In this document: positions 10,918 through 38,945 of the stretch, in pieces
How the letters are laid out: each line of letters begins with the position of its first letter
Numbering within the stretch: position 1 is the stretch's first letter
Source of the DNA: Escherichia coli 042
GTDB taxonomy: Bacteria > Pseudomonadota > Gammaproteobacteria > Enterobacterales > Enterobacteriaceae
DNA length: 64,000 nt
Assembly (NCBI RefSeq): GCF_000027125.1
Contig: NC_017626.1
Direction: 5' to 3' (one strand)
Notes under the pieces: model-generated
Seen by the model: only the letters and a program-made list of their open reading frames with translations
Told to the model about the DNA's origin: nothing
Databases searched by the model: none
Program-made: the position numbers and the translations under genes

Positions 10918-11020
10918 ATGCCGGATGCGGCGTGAACGCCTTATCCTGCCTACAAAGTCGTGCAAATTCAACATATTGCAGTTTATTGGTAGGCCTGATA
11001 AGCGCAGCGCATCAGGCAAT
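10918..11020. repeat. REP/BIME cluster: two inverted REP units
   Basis: Sequences gccggatgcggcgtgaacgccttatcctgcctaca and taggcctgataagcgcagcgcatcaggc match the E. coli REP consensus. Confidence 0.65.
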
Positions 11021-18881: not shown

Positions 18882-20276
18882 ATGAAAAAATCGACATTAT
18901 CTTTAGCCATCGGTTTATTATTGGCATGTAGTACCGGATTGGCAAAAACACAGCATTTAACGCTGGAACAACGCATGGCATTGCTGGAAGAACGCCTGGA
19001 AGCGGCAGAAATGCGGGCAGCAAAAGCAGAGAGCCAGGTTAAACAGCTGCAGACACAACAAGCCGCTGAGATCCGCGAAATTAAGGCTGCCCAGGGCAAT
19101 ACGCCGGTAAATGGACAGGCAACGGCGGAATCTGCAAAGAAAAATTCCACCTCACCTAATCTTTTGCTCTCAGGTTATGGCGATTTAAAAATCTACGGCG
19201 ACGTAGAATTTAATATGGATGCGGAAAGTAATCATGGCCTGCTGGCAATGACCAACGCTGATGTGAATAGCGATCCCACTAATGAACAGTGGAATCTCAA
19301 TGGTCGTATTCTGTTAGGTTTTGATGGTATGCGAAAACTGGATAATGGTTATTTCGCCGGGTTCTCCGCACAACCGCTGGGGGACATGCACGGTTCAGTA
19401 AATATCGATGATGCGGTATTCTTCTTTGGCAAAGAAAACGACTGGAAGGTCAAAGTAGGCCGTTTTGAAGCCTACGATATGTTCCCGCTGAATCAGGATA
19501 CCTTTGTTGAACATTCCGGTAATACTGCGAACGATCTTTATGACGATGGCAGCGGTTATATCTATATGATGAAAGAGGGCCGCGGGCGCTCTAACGCTGG
19601 CGGTAATTTCCTCGTCAGCAAACAACTTGATAACTGGTATTTTGAATTAAACACGTTACTTGAAGACGGAACATCTTTATATAATGACGGTAATTATCAT
19701 GGACGCGATATGGAGCAGCAGAAAAATGTTGCTTATCTGCGTCCAGTAATTGCCTGGTCGCCGACGGAAGAATTCACCGTTTCCGCAGCGATGGAAGCGA
19801 ACGTAGTAAATAATGCTTATGGTTATACCGATAGCAAGGGTAATTTTGTCGATCAGTCCGATCGTACCGGCTATGGTATGAGCATGACCTGGAATGGCCT
19901 GAAAACGGATCCGGAAAATGGCGTCGTGGTTAATCTTAATACCGCCTATTTAGATGCTAATAATGAGAAAGATTTCACTGCCGGGATTAACGCGCTGTGG
20001 AAACGTTTCGAGCTGGGTTATATCTACGCGCACAATAAGATTGATGAATTCAGCGGTGTAGTTTGTGATAACGACTGCTGGATTGATGATGAAGGGACGT
20101 ACACCATTCACACCATTCATGCGTCTTATCAGTTCGCTAATGTGATGGATATGGAGAACTTTAATATTTACCTCGGGACGTATTACTCCATTCTGGATAG
20201 CGACGGTGATAAAAAACACGGTGATGATACTGATGACCGTTACGGGGCACGCGTTCGCTTTAAATACTTCTTCTGA
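18882..20276 (+). CDS. Putative outer-membrane carbohydrate porin (LamB/ScrY-like) with N-terminal coiled coil
   Basis: 464-aa product: signal peptide MKKSTLSLAIGLLLACSTGLA, a roughly 50-aa Glu/Ala/Gln-rich heptad region, then Gly/Tyr/Asn-rich sequence with alternating hydrophobicity and a C-terminal Phe typical of beta-barrel proteins. Preceded by an AT-rich 420-bp region. Confidence 0.5.
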   Translation: MKKSTLSLAIGLLLACSTGLAKTQHLTLEQRMALLEERLEAAEMRAAKAESQVKQLQTQQAAEIREIKAAQGNTPVNGQATAESAKKNSTSPNLLLSGYGDLKIYGDVEFNMDAESNHGLLAMTNADVNSDPTNEQWNLNGRILLGFDGMRKLDNGYFAGFSAQPLGDMHGSVNIDDAVFFFGKENDWKVKVGRFEAYDMFPLNQDTFVEHSGNTANDLYDDGSGYIYMMKEGRGRSNAGGNFLVSKQLDNWYFELNTLLEDGTSLYNDGNYHGRDMEQQKNVAYLRPVIAWSPTEEFTVSAAMEANVVNNAYGYTDSKGNFVDQSDRTGYGMSMTWNGLKTDPENGVVVNLNTAYLDANNEKDFTAGINALWKRFELGYIYAHNKIDEFSGVVCDNDCWIDDEGTYTIHTIHASYQFANVMDMENFNIYLGTYYSILDSDGDKKHGDDTDDRYGARVRFKYFF

Positions 20277-21547: not shown

Positions 21548-24560
<3,013 letters not shown>

Positions 24561-31861: not shown

Positions 31862-33235
31862 TTAACTCCGCTTATACAGCGGCAACCAAATCACCAGCCG
31901 TAAACCGCCAAGCGGGCTGTCTTCTGCCTTCACCCAGCCACGATGCTGCTGGATGGCGGTTTCAACAATCGCCAGCCCCAAACCTGTACCGCCAGATTCA
32001 CGATCGCGTGCTTCATCGGTACGATAGAACGGGCGGAAAATCTGCTCGCGATCTTCCGGGCTAACGCCAGGACCATCGTCATCCACCGTAATGGTGATGC
32101 CGTCTTTATCTACCGCGAAGCCTACTTCAATCTTCGTATTGGAATAACGCAGGGCATTACGAACAATGTTTTCCAGCGCACTTTCCAGAGCGTTCGGGTT
32201 GCCATACAGCGGCCACGGCCCAGGCGGGAAGTTAACCGTCAACGACTTGCCCATCTGCTCGGCTTCGAACGCCGCGTTATCCAGCACTTCACTCCACAAC
32301 TGGTTGGCTTTGATGGTCTCACTCACCAGCGCGTTTTTCTGCTGATTACGTGACATCACCAACAGATCGTTGATCATGCTGTCCAGACGTTGCGCTTCGG
32401 TTTCAATACGCTCCAGTTCCTTGCTTTCACCACTACGACGGCGCAGTAACGCCGTACCCAGTTGCAGACGCGTCAGCGGGGTGCGCAGCTCGTGAGAGAT
32501 ATCAGAAAGCAGACGCTGCTGAGAGGTCATCATGCGCTCCAGCGCGGTGACCATCTGGTTAAAACTGGCACCAGCGGCAAGGAATTCCTGTGGCCCCGCT
32601 TCAAGTTCCGGGTGCTGGCGTAAGTTTCCCTGGGCAACTTCATCGGCAGCGTTTTTCAGCTTACGCGCCGGTTTTGCCAGACTCCAGGCCAACCACAACA
32701 GCAGCGGCGTACTGACCAACATGGTGACAATCAGCAGTAATAGCGGGCGGTCAAACAGTAAGTTAATGAAATCGGATTGAGAACTGCTGGCTGGACGAAT
32801 CAGATAAAGTTGGTAATTATCTTCGCCATCACGCACTGAGAACGGACCGACCAGTTCCACGCGGCCATACTTTTTCTTCTGCGGATGATCGGCGTTATCG
32901 GCCTGACCAATAAAGTTACGAATGATCTGCATTTCGCTGCGTTCAGCGCCGATAACGCGGCCTTCGGTGGTCACCAATAACAAACGCTGTCCTGGCGGTG
33001 CCCACTTATCAATCGCCCGGAACAGACGCCGCCACCACATTAAATCGTTGGGCGGATCGTTCGCCAGCTCCGCTTCGACATGCTGCTCAATCATCAGACC
33101 CTGACGCTGTTCGCTATCCAGAAGCTCGGTCATCTGGCGTGAATCGAGCTTGGGTAACATCAAAACTAACATCAACACCAGCGCCAGCGTCAGCCAGAAG
33201 ATGGCGAAGATGCGCGCGGTTAAGCTGCCTATCAT
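31862..33235 (-). CDS. cpxA: Envelope-stress sensor histidine kinase
   Basis: 457-aa product with two TM segments, HAMP, and a histidine kinase core. Confidence 0.95.
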   Translation of the reverse strand: MIGSLTARIFAIFWLTLALVLMLVLMLPKLDSRQMTELLDSEQRQGLMIEQHVEAELANDPPNDLMWWRRLFRAIDKWAPPGQRLLLVTTEGRVIGAERSEMQIIRNFIGQADNADHPQKKKYGRVELVGPFSVRDGEDNYQLYLIRPASSSQSDFINLLFDRPLLLLIVTMLVSTPLLLWLAWSLAKPARKLKNAADEVAQGNLRQHPELEAGPQEFLAAGASFNQMVTALERMMTSQQRLLSDISHELRTPLTRLQLGTALLRRRSGESKELERIETEAQRLDSMINDLLVMSRNQQKNALVSETIKANQLWSEVLDNAAFEAEQMGKSLTVNFPPGPWPLYGNPNALESALENIVRNALRYSNTKIEVGFAVDKDGITITVDDDGPGVSPEDREQIFRPFYRTDEARDRESGGTGLGLAIVETAIQQHRGWVKAEDSPLGGLRLVIWLPLYKRS

Positions 33236-33930
33236 GAAGCAGAAACCATCAGATAGCCGCGACCACGCAAGGTTTTAAACCACGGGTGACCATCTTTACG
33301 ATCCGGCAGTTTACGACGCAGGTTGGAAATGTGCATATCGATAGCGCGGTCGAAAGGCGTCAGCCGTTTGCCCAGCACTTCCTGGCTTAAATGCTCACGG
33401 GAAACCACCTGACCCAGATGCTGTGCCAGCAAATAGAGCAGGGTAAACTCAGTGCCGGTTAGCTCCAGCGTTTGCCCGTCGAAGCTGGCTTCCTGACGGC
33501 CTGGATTCAGCACTAAGGCATCAACTTCCAGTGTCGGTGAACCGTTGTCGTTGTTTTGCTGTTGCTCGCTCCAGTGCGAACGGCGCAGGATCGCGCGAAT
33601 ACGTGCCACCAGCTCACGATCATTAAACGGTTTCGGGAGATAGTCATCTGCGCCCAGCTCAAGGCCGAGAACGCGATCAAGTTCACTGCCGCGCGCCGTC
33701 AACATAATGACAGGCGTCTGGTGTGTCTGGCGAAGTGCTTTTAATGTGTCGATACCATTTTTCTTCGGCATCATTACATCAAGCAAAAGTAAATCAATGC
33801 TGTCGTCCAGAAGATCAAGCGCCTGTTCCCCATCGTGGGCAACAATCACGTTGAAGCCTTCCATCTCGAGCAGCTCCTTTAATAGGGAAGTCAGCTCTCG
33901 GTCATCATCAACTAACAGGATTTTATTCAT
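33232..33930 (-). CDS. cpxR: Envelope-stress response regulator (OmpR family)
   Basis: 232-aa product MNKILLVDDDRELTSLL...; ATGA overlap with cpxA. Confidence 0.95.
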   Translation of the reverse strand: MNKILLVDDDRELTSLLKELLEMEGFNVIVAHDGEQALDLLDDSIDLLLLDVMMPKKNGIDTLKALRQTHQTPVIMLTARGSELDRVLGLELGADDYLPKPFNDRELVARIRAILRRSHWSEQQQNNDNGSPTLEVDALVLNPGRQEASFDGQTLELTGTEFTLLYLLAQHLGQVVSREHLSQEVLGKRLTPFDRAIDMHISNLRRKLPDRKDGHPWFKTLRGRGYLMVSAS

Positions 33931-33984
33931 TGTTTAAATACCTCCGAGGCAGAAATTACGTCATCAGACGTCGCTAATCCATGA

Positions 33985-34000
33985 CTTTACGTTGTTTTAC
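33985..34000 (-). promoter_or_regulatory. CpxR-P binding site in the cpxR/cpxP divergent promoter region
   Basis: Reverse complement reads GTAAAACAACGTAAAG, a perfect GTAAA-N5-GTAAA CpxR consensus. Confidence 0.65.
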
Positions 34001-34079
34001 ACCCCCTGACGCATGTTTGCAGCCTGAATCGTAAACTCTCTATCGTTGAATCGCGACAGAAAGATTTTGGGAGCAAATG

Positions 34080-34580
34080 ATGCGCATAGTTACCGCTGCC
34101 GTCATGGCCTCAACGCTGGCAGTCAGTTCATTAAGCCACGCTGCTGAAGTCGGTTCAGGCGATAACTGGCATCCGGGTGAAGAACTTACGCAGCGCAGTA
34201 CGCAGAGCCATATGTTCGACGGCATAAGTTTAACCGAACATCAGCGTCAGCAGATGCGAGATCTTATGCAACAGGCCCGGCACGAACAGCCTCCTGTTAA
34301 TGTTAGCGAACTGGAGACAATGCATCGCCTTGTCACCGCAGAAAATTTTGATGAAAACGCTGTGCGCGCACAGGCAGAAAAAATGGCGAATGAGCAAATT
34401 GCTCGTCAGGTTGAGATGGCAAAAGTCCGCAACCAAATGTATCGCCTGTTAACGCCGGAGCAGCAAGCGGTTTTAAACGAGAAACATCAACAACGAATGG
34501 AGCAGTTGCGCGACGTGACGCAATGGCAAAAAAGTTCATCGTTGAAGCTATTGAGTAGTAGCAACTCACGTTCCCAGTAG
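34080..34580 (+). CDS. cpxP: Periplasmic Cpx pathway inhibitor/adaptor CpxP
   Basis: Second ATG gives the 166-aa product [17 protein letters not shown]...; contains LTxxQ motifs. Confidence 0.95.
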
Positions 34581-34588
34581 TAAACCCT

Positions 34589-34647
34589 GTTTTCCTTGCC
34601 ATAGACACCATCCCTGTCTTCCCCCACATGATGTGGGGGTTTTTTTT
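34589..34647 (+). ncRNA. cpxQ: Candidate 3'UTR-derived sRNA CpxQ
   Basis: Position corresponds to the cpxP 3' UTR ending at the intrinsic terminator, where CpxQ is known to be generated by RNase E processing in E. coli/Salmonella. The 5' boundary is approximate. Confidence 0.5.
34621..34647 (+). terminator. Rho-independent terminator of cpxP
   Basis: cccccacatgatgtggggg perfect hairpin followed by a run of T residues. Confidence 0.85.
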
Positions 34648-34728
34648 ATCCTCAATTTGCCTGCTGCTTAATGCATTGCAGATGATTTGCTTCCGTTATA
34701 CTAGCGTCAGTTGATAGCGGGAGTATTT

Positions 34729-35631
34729 ATGAATCAATCTTATGGACGGCTGGTCAGTCGGGCGGCGATTGCTGCAACGGCGATGGCTTCACTGCTATTG
34801 CTGATTAAAATTTTTGCATGGTGGTATACCGGGTCGGTGAGTATTCTCGCCGCGCTGGTGGATTCGCTGGTGGATATCGGCGCGTCGTTGACGAATTTAC
34901 TGGTGGTGCGATATTCCCTGCAACCTGCCGACGATAATCACTCGTTTGGTCACGGTAAAGCTGAGTCCCTCGCGGCGCTGGCGCAAAGTATGTTTATCTC
35001 CGGTTCGGCACTATTCCTCTTTTTGACGGGTATTCAACATCTGATATCTCCAACACCGATGACAGATCCAGGCGTCGGGGTTATCGTGACAATTGTGGCG
35101 CTAATTTGTACGATTATCCTTGTCTCGTTTCAGCGGTGGGTGGTGCGCCGGACGCAAAGCCAGGCGGTGCGGGCTGATATGCTACATTACCAGTCTGATG
35201 TTATGATGAACGGCGCAATTCTGCTGGCGCTGGGGTTGTCCTGGTACGGCTGGCATCGCGCCGATGCTCTGTTTGCATTGGGAATCGGCATCTATATTTT
35301 ATATAGCGCGTTACGCATGGGATATGAGGCGGTACAGTCATTACTGGATCGCGCATTACCTGATGAGGAACGGCAAGAAATTATTGATATCGTGACTTCC
35401 TGGCCGGGTGTTAGCGGCGCTCACGATCTTCGCACGCGGCAGTCAGGGCCGACCCGCTTTATTCAGATTCATTTGGAAATGGAAGACTCTCTGCCTTTGG
35501 TTCAGGCACATATGGTGGCGGATCAGGTAGAGCAGGCTATTTTACGGCGTTTTCCGGGATCGGATGTGATTATCCATCAGGACCCCTGTTCCGTCGTACC
35601 CAGGGAGGGTAAACGGTCTATGCTTTCATAA
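34729..35631 (+). CDS. fieF: Cation-diffusion-facilitator Fe/Zn efflux transporter
   Basis: Internal ATG gives the 300-aa product [20 protein letters not shown]... Confidence 0.9.
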
Positions 35632-38189: not shown

Positions 38190-38945
38190 ATGAAAAAAGC
38201 GGGTCTTCTTTTTTTGGTGATGATAGTTATCGCCGTTGTGGCTGCCGGTATGGGTTACTGGAAATTAACCGGTGAAGAATCGGATACATTACGTAAGATT
38301 GTCCTTGAGGAATGTTTGCCCAATCAGCAGCAAAATCAAAATCCTTCGCCATGTGCGGAAGTCAAACCCAATGCCGGATACGTGATTTTAAAAGATCTTA
38401 ATGGCCCACTGCAATATCTGTTGATGCCAACGTATCGTATTAACGGAACTGAAAGTCCTTTGTTGACCGATCCTTCAACGCCGAACTTCTTTTGGTTGGC
38501 CTGGCAGGCGCGTGATTTTATGAGCAAAAAATACGGTCAGTCGGTTCCCGATCGCGCGGTTTCTTTGGCGATCAACTCCCGCACCGGGCGTACGCAAAAC
38601 CATTTTCATATTCATATCTCTTGTATTCGTCCTGATGTGCGCGAACAACTGGATAAAAATCTGGCGAACATCAGCAGCCGCTGGTTGCCACTGCCAGGTG
38701 GTTTGCGCGGGCATGAATACCTGGCGCGTCGGGTAACGGAAAGCGAACTGGTACAACGCAGCCCATTTATGATGCTTGCAGGAGAAGTGCCTGAAGCGCG
38801 GGAACATATGGGAAGCTACGGGCTGGCGATGGTGCGGCAGAGTGATAATTCGTTTGTGTTGCTGGCGACACAACGAAATCTACTGACGCTGAACCGTGCT
38901 TCAGCCGAGGAAATCCAGGATCATCAGTGTGAGATTTTGCGTTAA
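38190..38945 (+). CDS. cdh: CDP-diacylglycerol pyrophosphatase
   Basis: ATG at 38190 gives the 251-aa product [20 protein letters not shown]...; the track ORF extends upstream through the sbp terminator. Confidence 0.9.

Follow-up and report, generated by a model that had tools for sequence, protein, structure and literature searches.

Among small RNAs (sRNAs) derived from the 3' untranslated region (UTR) of an mRNA, CpxQ is a textbook case, and its position between cpxP and fieF is already known. It is released from the cpxP transcript by RNase E cleavage in a Hfq-dependent manner (PMC9438474; PMC4817254). Mutation of a conserved RNase E site close to the mRNA's 3' end abolished CpxQ and barely affected the cpxP mRNA, and in vitro RNase E and Hfq were enough for CpxQ generation (PMC9438474). 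The 5' end of CpxQ naturally carries a monophosphate (PMC6755755) and constitutes the seed for nhaB and cfa (PMC6755755; PMC10250213), two targets on which CpxQ is active in E. coli (PMC10250213; PMC6755755). Repression of nhaB was reported in E. coli, together with a half-life of the sRNA above 16 min (PMC10250213). The list of CpxQ targets includes nhaB, skp, agp, ydjN and fimA, and the exceptional conservation of the sRNA has been pointed out (PMC9438474). In E. coli, CpxQ lowers Skp and keeps outer membrane proteins (OMPs) from being mistargeted into the inner membrane (PMC4817254). An Hfq-bound CpxQ of ~58 nt acting as a repressor of nhaB, skp, cfa and further targets has been published for K-12 and Salmonella (PMC4817254, PMC6755755, PMC10250213). 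FadL levels also drop upon over-expression of CpxQ (bioRxiv 10.1101/2024.10.18.618624). Another sRNA described at the same place is hrs1 of Erwinia amylovora, which depends on Hfq, ends in a Rho-independent terminator and was listed with a length of 74 nt; its gene sits between cpxP and fieF, on the strand of both (PMC4070566). Hrs1 was classed as Erwinia-specific by Zeng & Sundin in 2014 (PMC4070566).

The cpxP 3' untranslated region in E. coli 042

We analyzed the corresponding locus of E. coli 042 in a 64-kb stretch of its DNA, hereafter the window. The gene order, cpxA-cpxR / cpxP-(CpxQ)-fieF-pfkA, is canonical according to the list of open reading frames (ORFs) and to the comparison with K-12. 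The features of the locus are the following.

31862-33235, minus strand: cpxA (ORF list and K-12 comparison)
33232-33930, minus strand: cpxR (ORF list and K-12 comparison)
33986-34000, minus strand: perfect tandem repeat GTAAA-N5-GTAAA resembling the CpxR box, between cpxR and cpxP and upstream of the latter
34080-34580, plus strand: cpxP coding sequence, parent mRNA of the sRNA, with its start matching the K-12 annotation
34581-34647, plus strand: cpxP 3' UTR of 67 nt, beginning just past the stop codon and ending at the last T of the run
34585-34592, plus strand: presumed processing site CCCUG/UUU, with the cut between G34589 and U34590 (5' end from the K-12 annotation)
34590-34647, plus strand: mature CpxQ sRNA, 58 nt, 57/58 identical to cpxQ (b4716) of NC_000913.3
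34590-34620, plus strand: CpxQ nt 1-31, UUUUCCUUGCCAUAGACACCAUCCCUGUCUU, invariant and mostly single-stranded, holding the target-pairing regions
34603-34619, plus strand: small internal hairpin AGACA-N7-UGUCU, 5 bp, predicted from minimum free energy and consensus folds, uncertain
34621-34639, plus strand: Rho-independent terminator hairpin of 8 bp with a 3-nt loop (fold and terminator scan)
34640-34647, plus strand: U8 tail, T-run of the terminator, TTTTTTTT (direct reading and terminator scan)
34729, plus strand: ATG of fieF, downstream of CpxQ, with pfkA (plus strand) beyond

The cpxP coding sequence ends with a TAG codon at 34578-34580, immediately followed by TAA, as seen by direct reading and from the ORF list. 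The start of the mechanical ORF is at the preceding ATG (34077), that of the K-12 annotation at 34080. The terminator reads CCCCCACA-TGA-TGTGGGGG at 34621-34639, a perfect stem of eight pairs of which six are G-C. The predicted fold of the UTR (68 nt) has an energy of -17.4 kcal/mol (z = -2.45), equalled by 2 of 200 shuffled sequences. In Hfq-dependent sRNAs, Hfq binds the U-rich tail of the terminator, and the U8 tail found here is presumed to be such a Hfq-binding 3' end. Two terminators were found in the region for 1.0 expected, a count that is not significant alone; the case for an above-chance feature is carried instead by the 57/58 identity with K-12 cpxQ and by conservation and covariation across genera.

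The curated K-12 non-coding RNA cpxQ (b4716) lies at 4106330-4106387 of NC_000913.3, nine bases past cpxP. The original prediction had proposed an alignment with annotated cpxQ as a check. This alignment is gapless over 34590-34647 and gives 57 identities out of 58, the sole mismatch being at 34631 in the terminator loop (A in the window versus C in K-12). The single-stranded pairing regions are identical to those of K-12 CpxQ, with no divergence from the known seed regions. The 58-mer of the window is the majority allele in E. coli, being identical in 4192 of 5424 matching records; 1223 records, including K-12, are one position off and nine differ more. The CpxQ region as a whole was found in 5423-5425 of 5426 complete E. 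coli genomes. The same 58-mer is found without any change (58/58) in the Salmonella locus and in the Klebsiella-type locus that were examined. The original prediction had announced a cpxP stop codon followed by a UTR of about 60 nt, a perfect hairpin and a U-run, and had judged the sequence consistent with the CpxQ arrangement. Both statements hold, the first with TAG at 34578-34580, 67 nt, 8 bp and T8, and the second with the 57/58 match to b4716, the canonical gene order and the agreement of the literature. The span it had given, 34589-34647, is right at its end and begins 1 nt too early, G34589 lying just 5' of the processing site. The segment 34590-34647 is thus almost certainly the known cpxQ gene, encoding the RNase E-released and Hfq-bound sRNA derived from the cpxP 3' UTR. 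Because only one loop base differs, results published for K-12 should transfer to the RNA of the window. For strain 042, we infer from the literature the control of transcription, the cleavage by RNase E, the binding of Hfq and the targets.

The tandem repeat GTAAA-N5-GTAAA is the CpxR box, and the cpxP promoter is the most strongly induced by the Cpx system. PMC4817254 can also be cited in support of both points. The repeat at 33986-34000 is the sole match without mismatch within the 64-kb window; with up to one mismatch, five matches were found for 3.0 expected, which is not above chance. It is presumed from its sequence to be the Cpx control element of the cpxP transcript. The following scenario can be proposed. 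Envelope stress would activate CpxA/CpxR, and CpxR-P would drive the cpxP promoter, with transcription ending at the hairpin and U8 terminator (34621-34647). RNase E, with the help of Hfq, would cut between G34589 and U34590, 9 nt past the stop codon. A stable RNA with a 5' monophosphate would then be freed, and its invariant nucleotides 1-31 could pair with the nhaB, skp, agp, ydjN, fimA and cfa mRNAs. Such pairing would result in a translation block or in decay by RNase E, and FadL levels would also be lowered. The CpxP protein and the CpxQ RNA, the tail of the same mRNA, may in this way jointly ease stress at the inner membrane.

Pairing of CpxQ with the 5' region of cpxP itself was evaluated because Grabowicz et al. 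described an effect that requires cpxP nt 1-63. The most stable duplex has an energy of -16.3 kcal/mol, and 147 of 500 shuffled sRNAs did as well. Among the 65 ORF starts in the window, the cpxP 5' region ranks 28th for pairing with CpxQ, which gives no support to this candidate.

Conservation and annotation of the locus

To assess conservation, one genome per species was scanned with a 19-base core pattern, which returned at least 120 stretches. The pattern fixes 19 conserved positions, and lineages with a diverged core, such as the Hrs1 type of Erwinia amylovora, are under-sampled. Among the 120 matches listed, a cpxP homolog (46-98% amino acid identity with CpxP of the window) is directly upstream in 98, and a run of at least six T is present at the expected place of the terminator in 103. 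The sequences of these 103 loci form 47 variants, all of which (47/47) have a hairpin directly followed by the U-run. The fieF gene is directly downstream in 80 of 97 loci, again among the matches listed. The remaining matches, about 17 of those listed, come from unrelated phyla and have neither cpxP nor a terminator; their number is about that expected by chance. Some full-length CpxQ sequences were found on "plasmids", one of them labelled Pseudomonas. Horizontal transfer was considered for these and rejected, as they are actually chromosomal fragments filed as plasmids. Among the matches listed, the genuine loci come from over 20 genera of Enterobacterales, namely Escherichia, Salmonella, Citrobacter, Klebsiella, Enterobacter, Cedecea, Buttiauxella, Kosakonia, Pluralibacter, Mangrovibacter, Pantoea, Erwinia, Mixta, Winslowiella, Yersinia, Dickeya, Brenneria, Lonsdalea and others.

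Mean identity to the window, calculated over 95 loci among the matches listed, is distributed along the locus as follows.

Two upstream segments of the cpxP coding sequence: 67-68%
Nine bases before the RNA: 80%
CpxQ nt 1-31: 99.7%, identical in 86 of 95 loci
CpxQ hairpin and tail: 86.6%
60 nt past the T-run (spacer): 57%

Twelve positions within nt 1-31 are left free by the search pattern, and in 98 loci they are invariant save for position 31 (94 T and 4 A) and for a 1-nt deletion within nt 1-31 found in five Pantoea-type loci. The terminator behaves differently. Over 48 variants among the matches listed, it is represented by 34 distinct hairpins with 21 distinct stems, and all 21 stems are perfectly paired, with 6-9 bp, energies from -11.4 to -17.7 kcal/mol and up to five types of pair at inner positions. 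The U tail has a length of 7-9 in almost all of the 103 loci, and one locus has six after CC. Alignment of 35 variants with MAFFT followed by RNAalifold called 3 of the 8 terminator pairs, since differences in loop length shift the register of the stem, and the stems were instead folded for each sequence and anchored on the U-run. Regarding the small internal hairpin AGACA-N7-UGUCU, its five pairs are all invariant (5/5), so that covariation neither supports nor refutes it. Nucleotides 1-31 are thus constrained in sequence and the terminator in structure alone, a pattern characteristic of sRNAs that act by base pairing and end in an intrinsic terminator.

The presumed processing site is also well preserved. 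The CCC at positions -5 to -3, which the search pattern does not fix, is C in 94-98 of 98 loci, and the junction CCCUG/UUUU is kept across loci, both among the matches listed. The RNase E consensus RN/WUU, as quoted in PMC6755755, fits this junction at +1 to +3; position -2 is U, not a purine.

At the gathering score, Rfam 15 reports no family at this site. Rfam 15 has no CpxQ model, and its silence is for this reason not evidence against an RNA. A permissive search gave as best hit RF02628 (Hrs1), which aligns to 34575-34647 of the minus strand with 44.5 bits (E = 1.5e-7). This match is below the gathering score of 56.4 and is antisense to cpxP, so that the site does not qualify as a member of RF02628. 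Weak matches with the terminators of unrelated sRNAs such as NsiR1, RyhB and OmrA-B were attributed to a generic resemblance of terminators. The consensus of RF02628 opens with A7 followed by a G+C-rich hairpin, i.e. a terminator in reverse complement. Hrs1 is evidently the Erwinia ortholog of CpxQ. Its model, the sole one in Rfam 15 related to CpxQ, seems to be restricted to Erwinia and to have been deposited as the reverse complement of the RNA. The apparently reversed Hrs1 model and the missing CpxQ family would together explain why automatic annotation misses cpxQ. In RefSeq records of E. coli annotated with PGAP, only cpxP and fieF, or nothing, are found under the CpxQ match. A CpxQ family for Rfam built from the present alignment would close this annotation gap across thousands of E. 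coli genomes.

A phage attachment site overlapping cpxQ

In E. coli, the places matched by the 58-nt query outnumbered the records by about 670, and this excess led to a phage attachment site.

34604-34650, no strand: attB core of Wphi-type P2-like phages (Peduovirus), 47 bp, corresponding to CpxQ nt 15-58 plus 3 bp, unoccupied

The sequence 22550-22596 of phage Wphi (AY135739) is identical to the window at 34604-34650 over all 47 bp; it is located between ogr and int, and int starts 116 bp away. This attP core is common to 62 phage records, including fiAA91-ss, R18C, Salmonella FSLSP004 and the Yersinia phages P37 and vB_YpM. A circular P2-like replicon of 32 kb has 45 bp identical to 34606-34650 of the window, 110 bp from its integrase gene. 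The occupied form of the site was also encountered. One Salmonella record shows cpxP, an intact CpxQ and then an integrase. In E. coli EM22-18-53 (locus L005), the core is present as a direct repeat around a remnant of a P2-like prophage, with one copy at 38540-38581 between cpxP and int and the other at 19001-19042 between ogrK and fieF. The host flank at the ogrK/fieF copy is identical to the window from 34651 on. Of the 5426 complete E. coli genomes, 790 (about 15%) have the attR junction in contiguous form, i.e. an occupied site. The window contains a single copy of the core with fieF directly next to it, and its site is therefore empty. When an integrase was looked for downstream of the 103 loci with one query, two clear cases were obtained, these loci being short and integrases diverse.

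The phage site between cpxP and fieF has itself long been known. The table of the E. coli W genome lists "cpxP-fieF: Wphi1 (P2)" and "cyaR RNA: Wphi2 (P2)" (PMC3032704), Nilsson et al. placed the Wphi/L-413C site at MG1655 coordinate 4104392 (PMC3448106), and a 2026 preprint located PhiESI between fieF and cpxP in S. Infantis. These three sources give the site as intergenic or as a coordinate and do not name CpxQ, and our literature search found no paper linking the cpxP-fieF attachment site with CpxQ. Among the papers searched, the one that mentions both CpxQ and an integrase does so for lambda att cloning, and those checked on CpxQ and prophages have no bearing on this site. Nilsson et al. 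also stated that no sequenced Yersinia had a matching attB for L-413C (PMC3448106). This fits with our data on CpxQ, as Yersinia keeps nt 1-31 and has a different terminator stem.

It is essentially certain that the attB core overlaps the 3' two-thirds of cpxQ (nt 15-58), which comprise the second pairing block and the terminator/Hfq module. Integration of Wphi would regenerate an intact cpxQ at attL and leave CpxQ nt 15-58 at attR. Each Wphi-type phage carries CpxQ nt 15-58 without a promoter, and about 15% of E. coli have a second copy (attR) upstream of fieF. Integration might subtly alter the expression of CpxQ or fieF. Expression of the copy in the phage or at attR, e.g. through late or ogr read-through, to give a truncated CpxQ-like Hfq-binding RNA or a competitor by which the phage could influence the Cpx envelope-stress response, is unlikely. 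A role of the attP core hairpin as terminator of ogr, which would make it a phage mimic of CpxQ, was also considered. This proposal is weakened by the fact that ogr of Wphi has its own hairpin and T-run after its stop codon, about 90 nt before the attP core.

The Wphi/L-413C site is the cpxQ gene itself, and CpxQ joins cyaR and ssrA as RNA-gene targets of the P2 family. The overlap is of relevance when cpxQ is engineered or deleted, or when the Wphi integrase is used as a tool. For curation, the by-products of this analysis have a modest interest; they are the attB overlap, the apparent strand error and missing family in Rfam and the incomplete PGAP annotation.

Alternative explanations and closest known systems

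The UTR could be a mere intrinsic terminator of cpxP with no RNA function of its own. A hairpin and a T-run past a stop codon are indeed the default end of a bacterial gene, and the local count of terminators (2 versus 1.0 expected) is not above chance. However, a stem and a U-run would suffice for this purpose, yet exactly these elements vary, with 21 different stems, whereas the 31 nt before the stem reach 99.7% identity versus 67% for the cpxP coding sequence. Published deletion and over-expression experiments show regulation in trans (PMC4817254, PMC6755755, PMC10250213). In these papers, altered expression of known targets was already reported for K-12 after scrambling of the segment 34590-34620 with the hairpin left in place, and a bare terminator is highly improbable. 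An sRNA transcribed independently from its own promoter in the 3' end of cpxP ("type I", like MicL and DapZ) would be in line with the frequency of internal promoters among 3'-UTR sRNAs. A crude sigma-70 scan of both strands from 33900 to 34800 found none, but the same scan also misses the real cpxP promoter. Against such a promoter stand the loss of CpxQ upon mutation of the RNase E site and its natural 5' monophosphate (PMC9438474, PMC6755755, PMC10250213), with which the conserved CCCUG/UUUU junction agrees as a processing site, and an internal promoter is very unlikely to be the origin of this RNA.

Conservation of nt 1-31 might also have been imposed by the role of the region as attB rather than by an RNA function, given the 47 bp found identically in the attP cores of Wphi and of about 60 other peduovirus records and the occupation of the site in about 15% of E. 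coli genomes. Yet the host gains nothing from keeping an attB, and temperate phages typically copy conserved host genes. Moreover, the phage core does not include CpxQ nt 1-14, which are equally invariant, the terminators of Yersinia, Pantoea, Dickeya and Lonsdalea differ from the phage core while nt 1-31 are kept, and the three bases of the core past the U-run (ATC) vary across genera. That phages shaped this conservation is thus extremely improbable. The orientation of the Hrs1 match could finally suggest a functional RNA on the opposite strand, the best Rfam match (RF02628, 44.5 bits, E = 1.5e-7) being on the minus strand. However, its score is below the gathering score of 56.4, and the A7 and G+C-rich hairpin of the model consensus correspond to a reversed terminator. 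The hrs1 gene itself is on the strand of cpxP and fieF ("> > >"), with its terminator and Hfq dependence (PMC4070566). On the minus strand of the locus, the hairpin is not followed by a T-run and the crude scan gave no promoter-like site, which makes a minus-strand RNA scarcely conceivable.

We thus retain CpxQ as the identity of the RNA encoded at 34590-34647. Compared with CpxQ of K-12 and Salmonella Typhimurium, the locus of the window has the same origin in the cpxP 3' UTR, 9 nt past the stop codon and upstream of fieF, the same length of 58 nt and the same terminator architecture. It differs from K-12 by the loop base at 34631 (C in K-12 versus A in the window), the A allele being the commoner (4192 versus about 1223 records). 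With Hrs1, CpxQ shares the dependence on Hfq, a terminator, the position and strand between cpxP and fieF, and the blocks CCUUGCCA and UCCCUGUCU; the reported length is 74 nt for Hrs1 versus 58 for CpxQ, and the two diverge in the middle segment and in the stem of the terminator. SdhX and SroC, like CpxQ, are mRNA 3' ends that RNase E sets free; they use the terminator of the mRNA, have a 5' monophosphate and act in trans with Hfq (PMC9438474, PMC10250213). They have other parent genes, seeds and regulons and no sequence relationship with CpxQ, which differs in being derived from a monocistronic mRNA and in having a protein partner in the same stress pathway. As for the attachment site, the situation is comparable to that of P2 at cyaR and of elements at ssrA, where attP copies the 3' end of an sRNA gene, leaving attL intact and attR partial. 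It differs from these cases in that the literature consulted on the cpxP-fieF site does not name cpxQ and in that the site is empty in the window.

Phage attachment site overlapping cpxQ

The last 44 nt at the 3' end of cpxQ, together with the following 3 bp (34604-34650), match the attP core of the P2-like phage Wphi (AY135739) base for base, and the same core is found without change in about 60 further peduovirus records. This 47-bp segment is the Wphi-type attB. It is empty in the window, while the attR junction on the fieF side, the mark of an occupied site, is present in 790 of the 5426 complete E. coli genomes. Papers describing this site name it 'cpxP-fieF' or designate it by coordinate, and leave CpxQ unmentioned (PMC3032704; PMC3448106).

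In the phage, the stop codon of ogr is directly followed by a terminator that belongs to this gene, a hairpin with a T-run (AGCCCCTCAGTTGAGGGGCTTTATTT, positions 2390-2430 of the Wphi locus L126), and the CpxQ-derived attP core lies about 90 nt downstream of this terminator. Because ogr is already provided with a terminator just after its stop, the hairpin of the core is not the primary ogr terminator.

The cpxP gene and other Rfam matches

Upstream of cpxQ, a perfect copy of the CpxR-box consensus GTAAA-N5-GTAAA is located in the cpxR-cpxP intergenic region (33986-34000, minus strand) and is the sole exact match in the 64-kb window. With one mismatch, the motif is also found at 24474, 35541 (within fieF), 46017 and 60568, a total count not higher than expected by chance. 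As mechanically called, the cpxP open reading frame starts with the ATG at 34077, one codon 5' of the start annotated in K-12 (34080), which gives the N-terminus MMRIV... versus MRIV... for the K-12 start.

Rfam matches elsewhere in the window:
10954-10996, plus strand, ES036 (CssrF) sRNA, gathering score
36852-36893, minus strand, ES036 (CssrF) sRNA, gathering score
16083-16141, minus strand, SECIS_3, gathering level, 84 bits
50545-50602, minus strand, ClpQY (hslVU) promoter element, gathering level, 64 bits
55214-55266, plus strand, L31 ribosomal-protein leader, gathering level, 60 bits

The last three presumably belong to fdoG, hslVU and rpmE, respectively, as on the K-12 map. Both ES036 matches are copies of one extragenic repeat with 85% mean column identity and the pattern (A)TCC..CCTA...TGCAAATTCAA.A.ATT.CAG...GTAGGCCTGATAAGCG, one copy being located just after pfkA. 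The repeat looks like a REP/BIME-type element, and the two matches probably reflect this repeat, not genuine sRNA genes.

Annotation of cpxQ and cpxP in databases

Rfam 15 contains no CpxQ family. Its family RF02628 (Hrs1) matches 34575-34647 on the minus strand alone, in the orientation antisense to CpxQ, and its score there falls short of the gathering score. The RF02628 consensus opens with A7 and a hairpin, and the model therefore appears to represent the strand opposite to the RNA described in the source paper. Hrs1 is an Erwinia amylovora sRNA located between cpxP and fieF, and is evidently the Erwinia orthologue of CpxQ. In the PGAP-annotated RefSeq E. coli records listed, no feature is given for the CpxQ match at 34590-34647 ('none', or cpxP/fieF only), whereas the curated K-12 record carries an annotated cpxQ ncRNA. 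A well-characterised sRNA is thus missing from the annotation of these PGAP records.

Two PLSDB 'plasmids' carrying cpxP are really chromosomal fragments. The first, 'Pseudomonas sp. A2 plasmid unnamed4' (NZ_CP039131.1), is linear, 51 kb long, and presents a Klebsiella-type rhaT-sodA-cpxARP-fieF-pfkA-hslU block; the second, Salmonella 'pRM11060-1' (CP022659.1), carries sodA-cpxARP and then a P2-like prophage. Several further 'plasmid' matches are 4-5 Mb long.

Variation of CpxQ within and beyond E. coli

CpxQ is identical to that of the window in 4192 E. coli records, and about 1223 have one difference from it. Position 34631 is polymorphic within the species (A in the window, C in K-12). Both hairpin alleles fold at -14.4 kcal/mol, and as this base sits in the terminator loop, no structural effect is predicted.

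Across genera, the body of the RNA (nt 1-31) is essentially invariant. In one Pantoea stewartii-type clade (L016, L057, L076, L096 and L117, among the matches listed), a 1-nt deletion gives ACACAUCCC instead of ACACCAUCCC and shortens the loop of a small predicted internal hairpin. Yersinia and related loci (L011, L043, L093, L119 and L123) keep nt 1-31, and the Yersinia terminator differs (GCCCUCC...GGAGGGC). The E. coli-type 47-bp core is found in the Yersinia pestis phages P37, vB_YpM_22 and vB_YpM_50. The difference between the Yersinia terminator and the phage core agrees with the published remark on phage L-413C that sequenced Yersinia are without a matching attB (PMC3448106).
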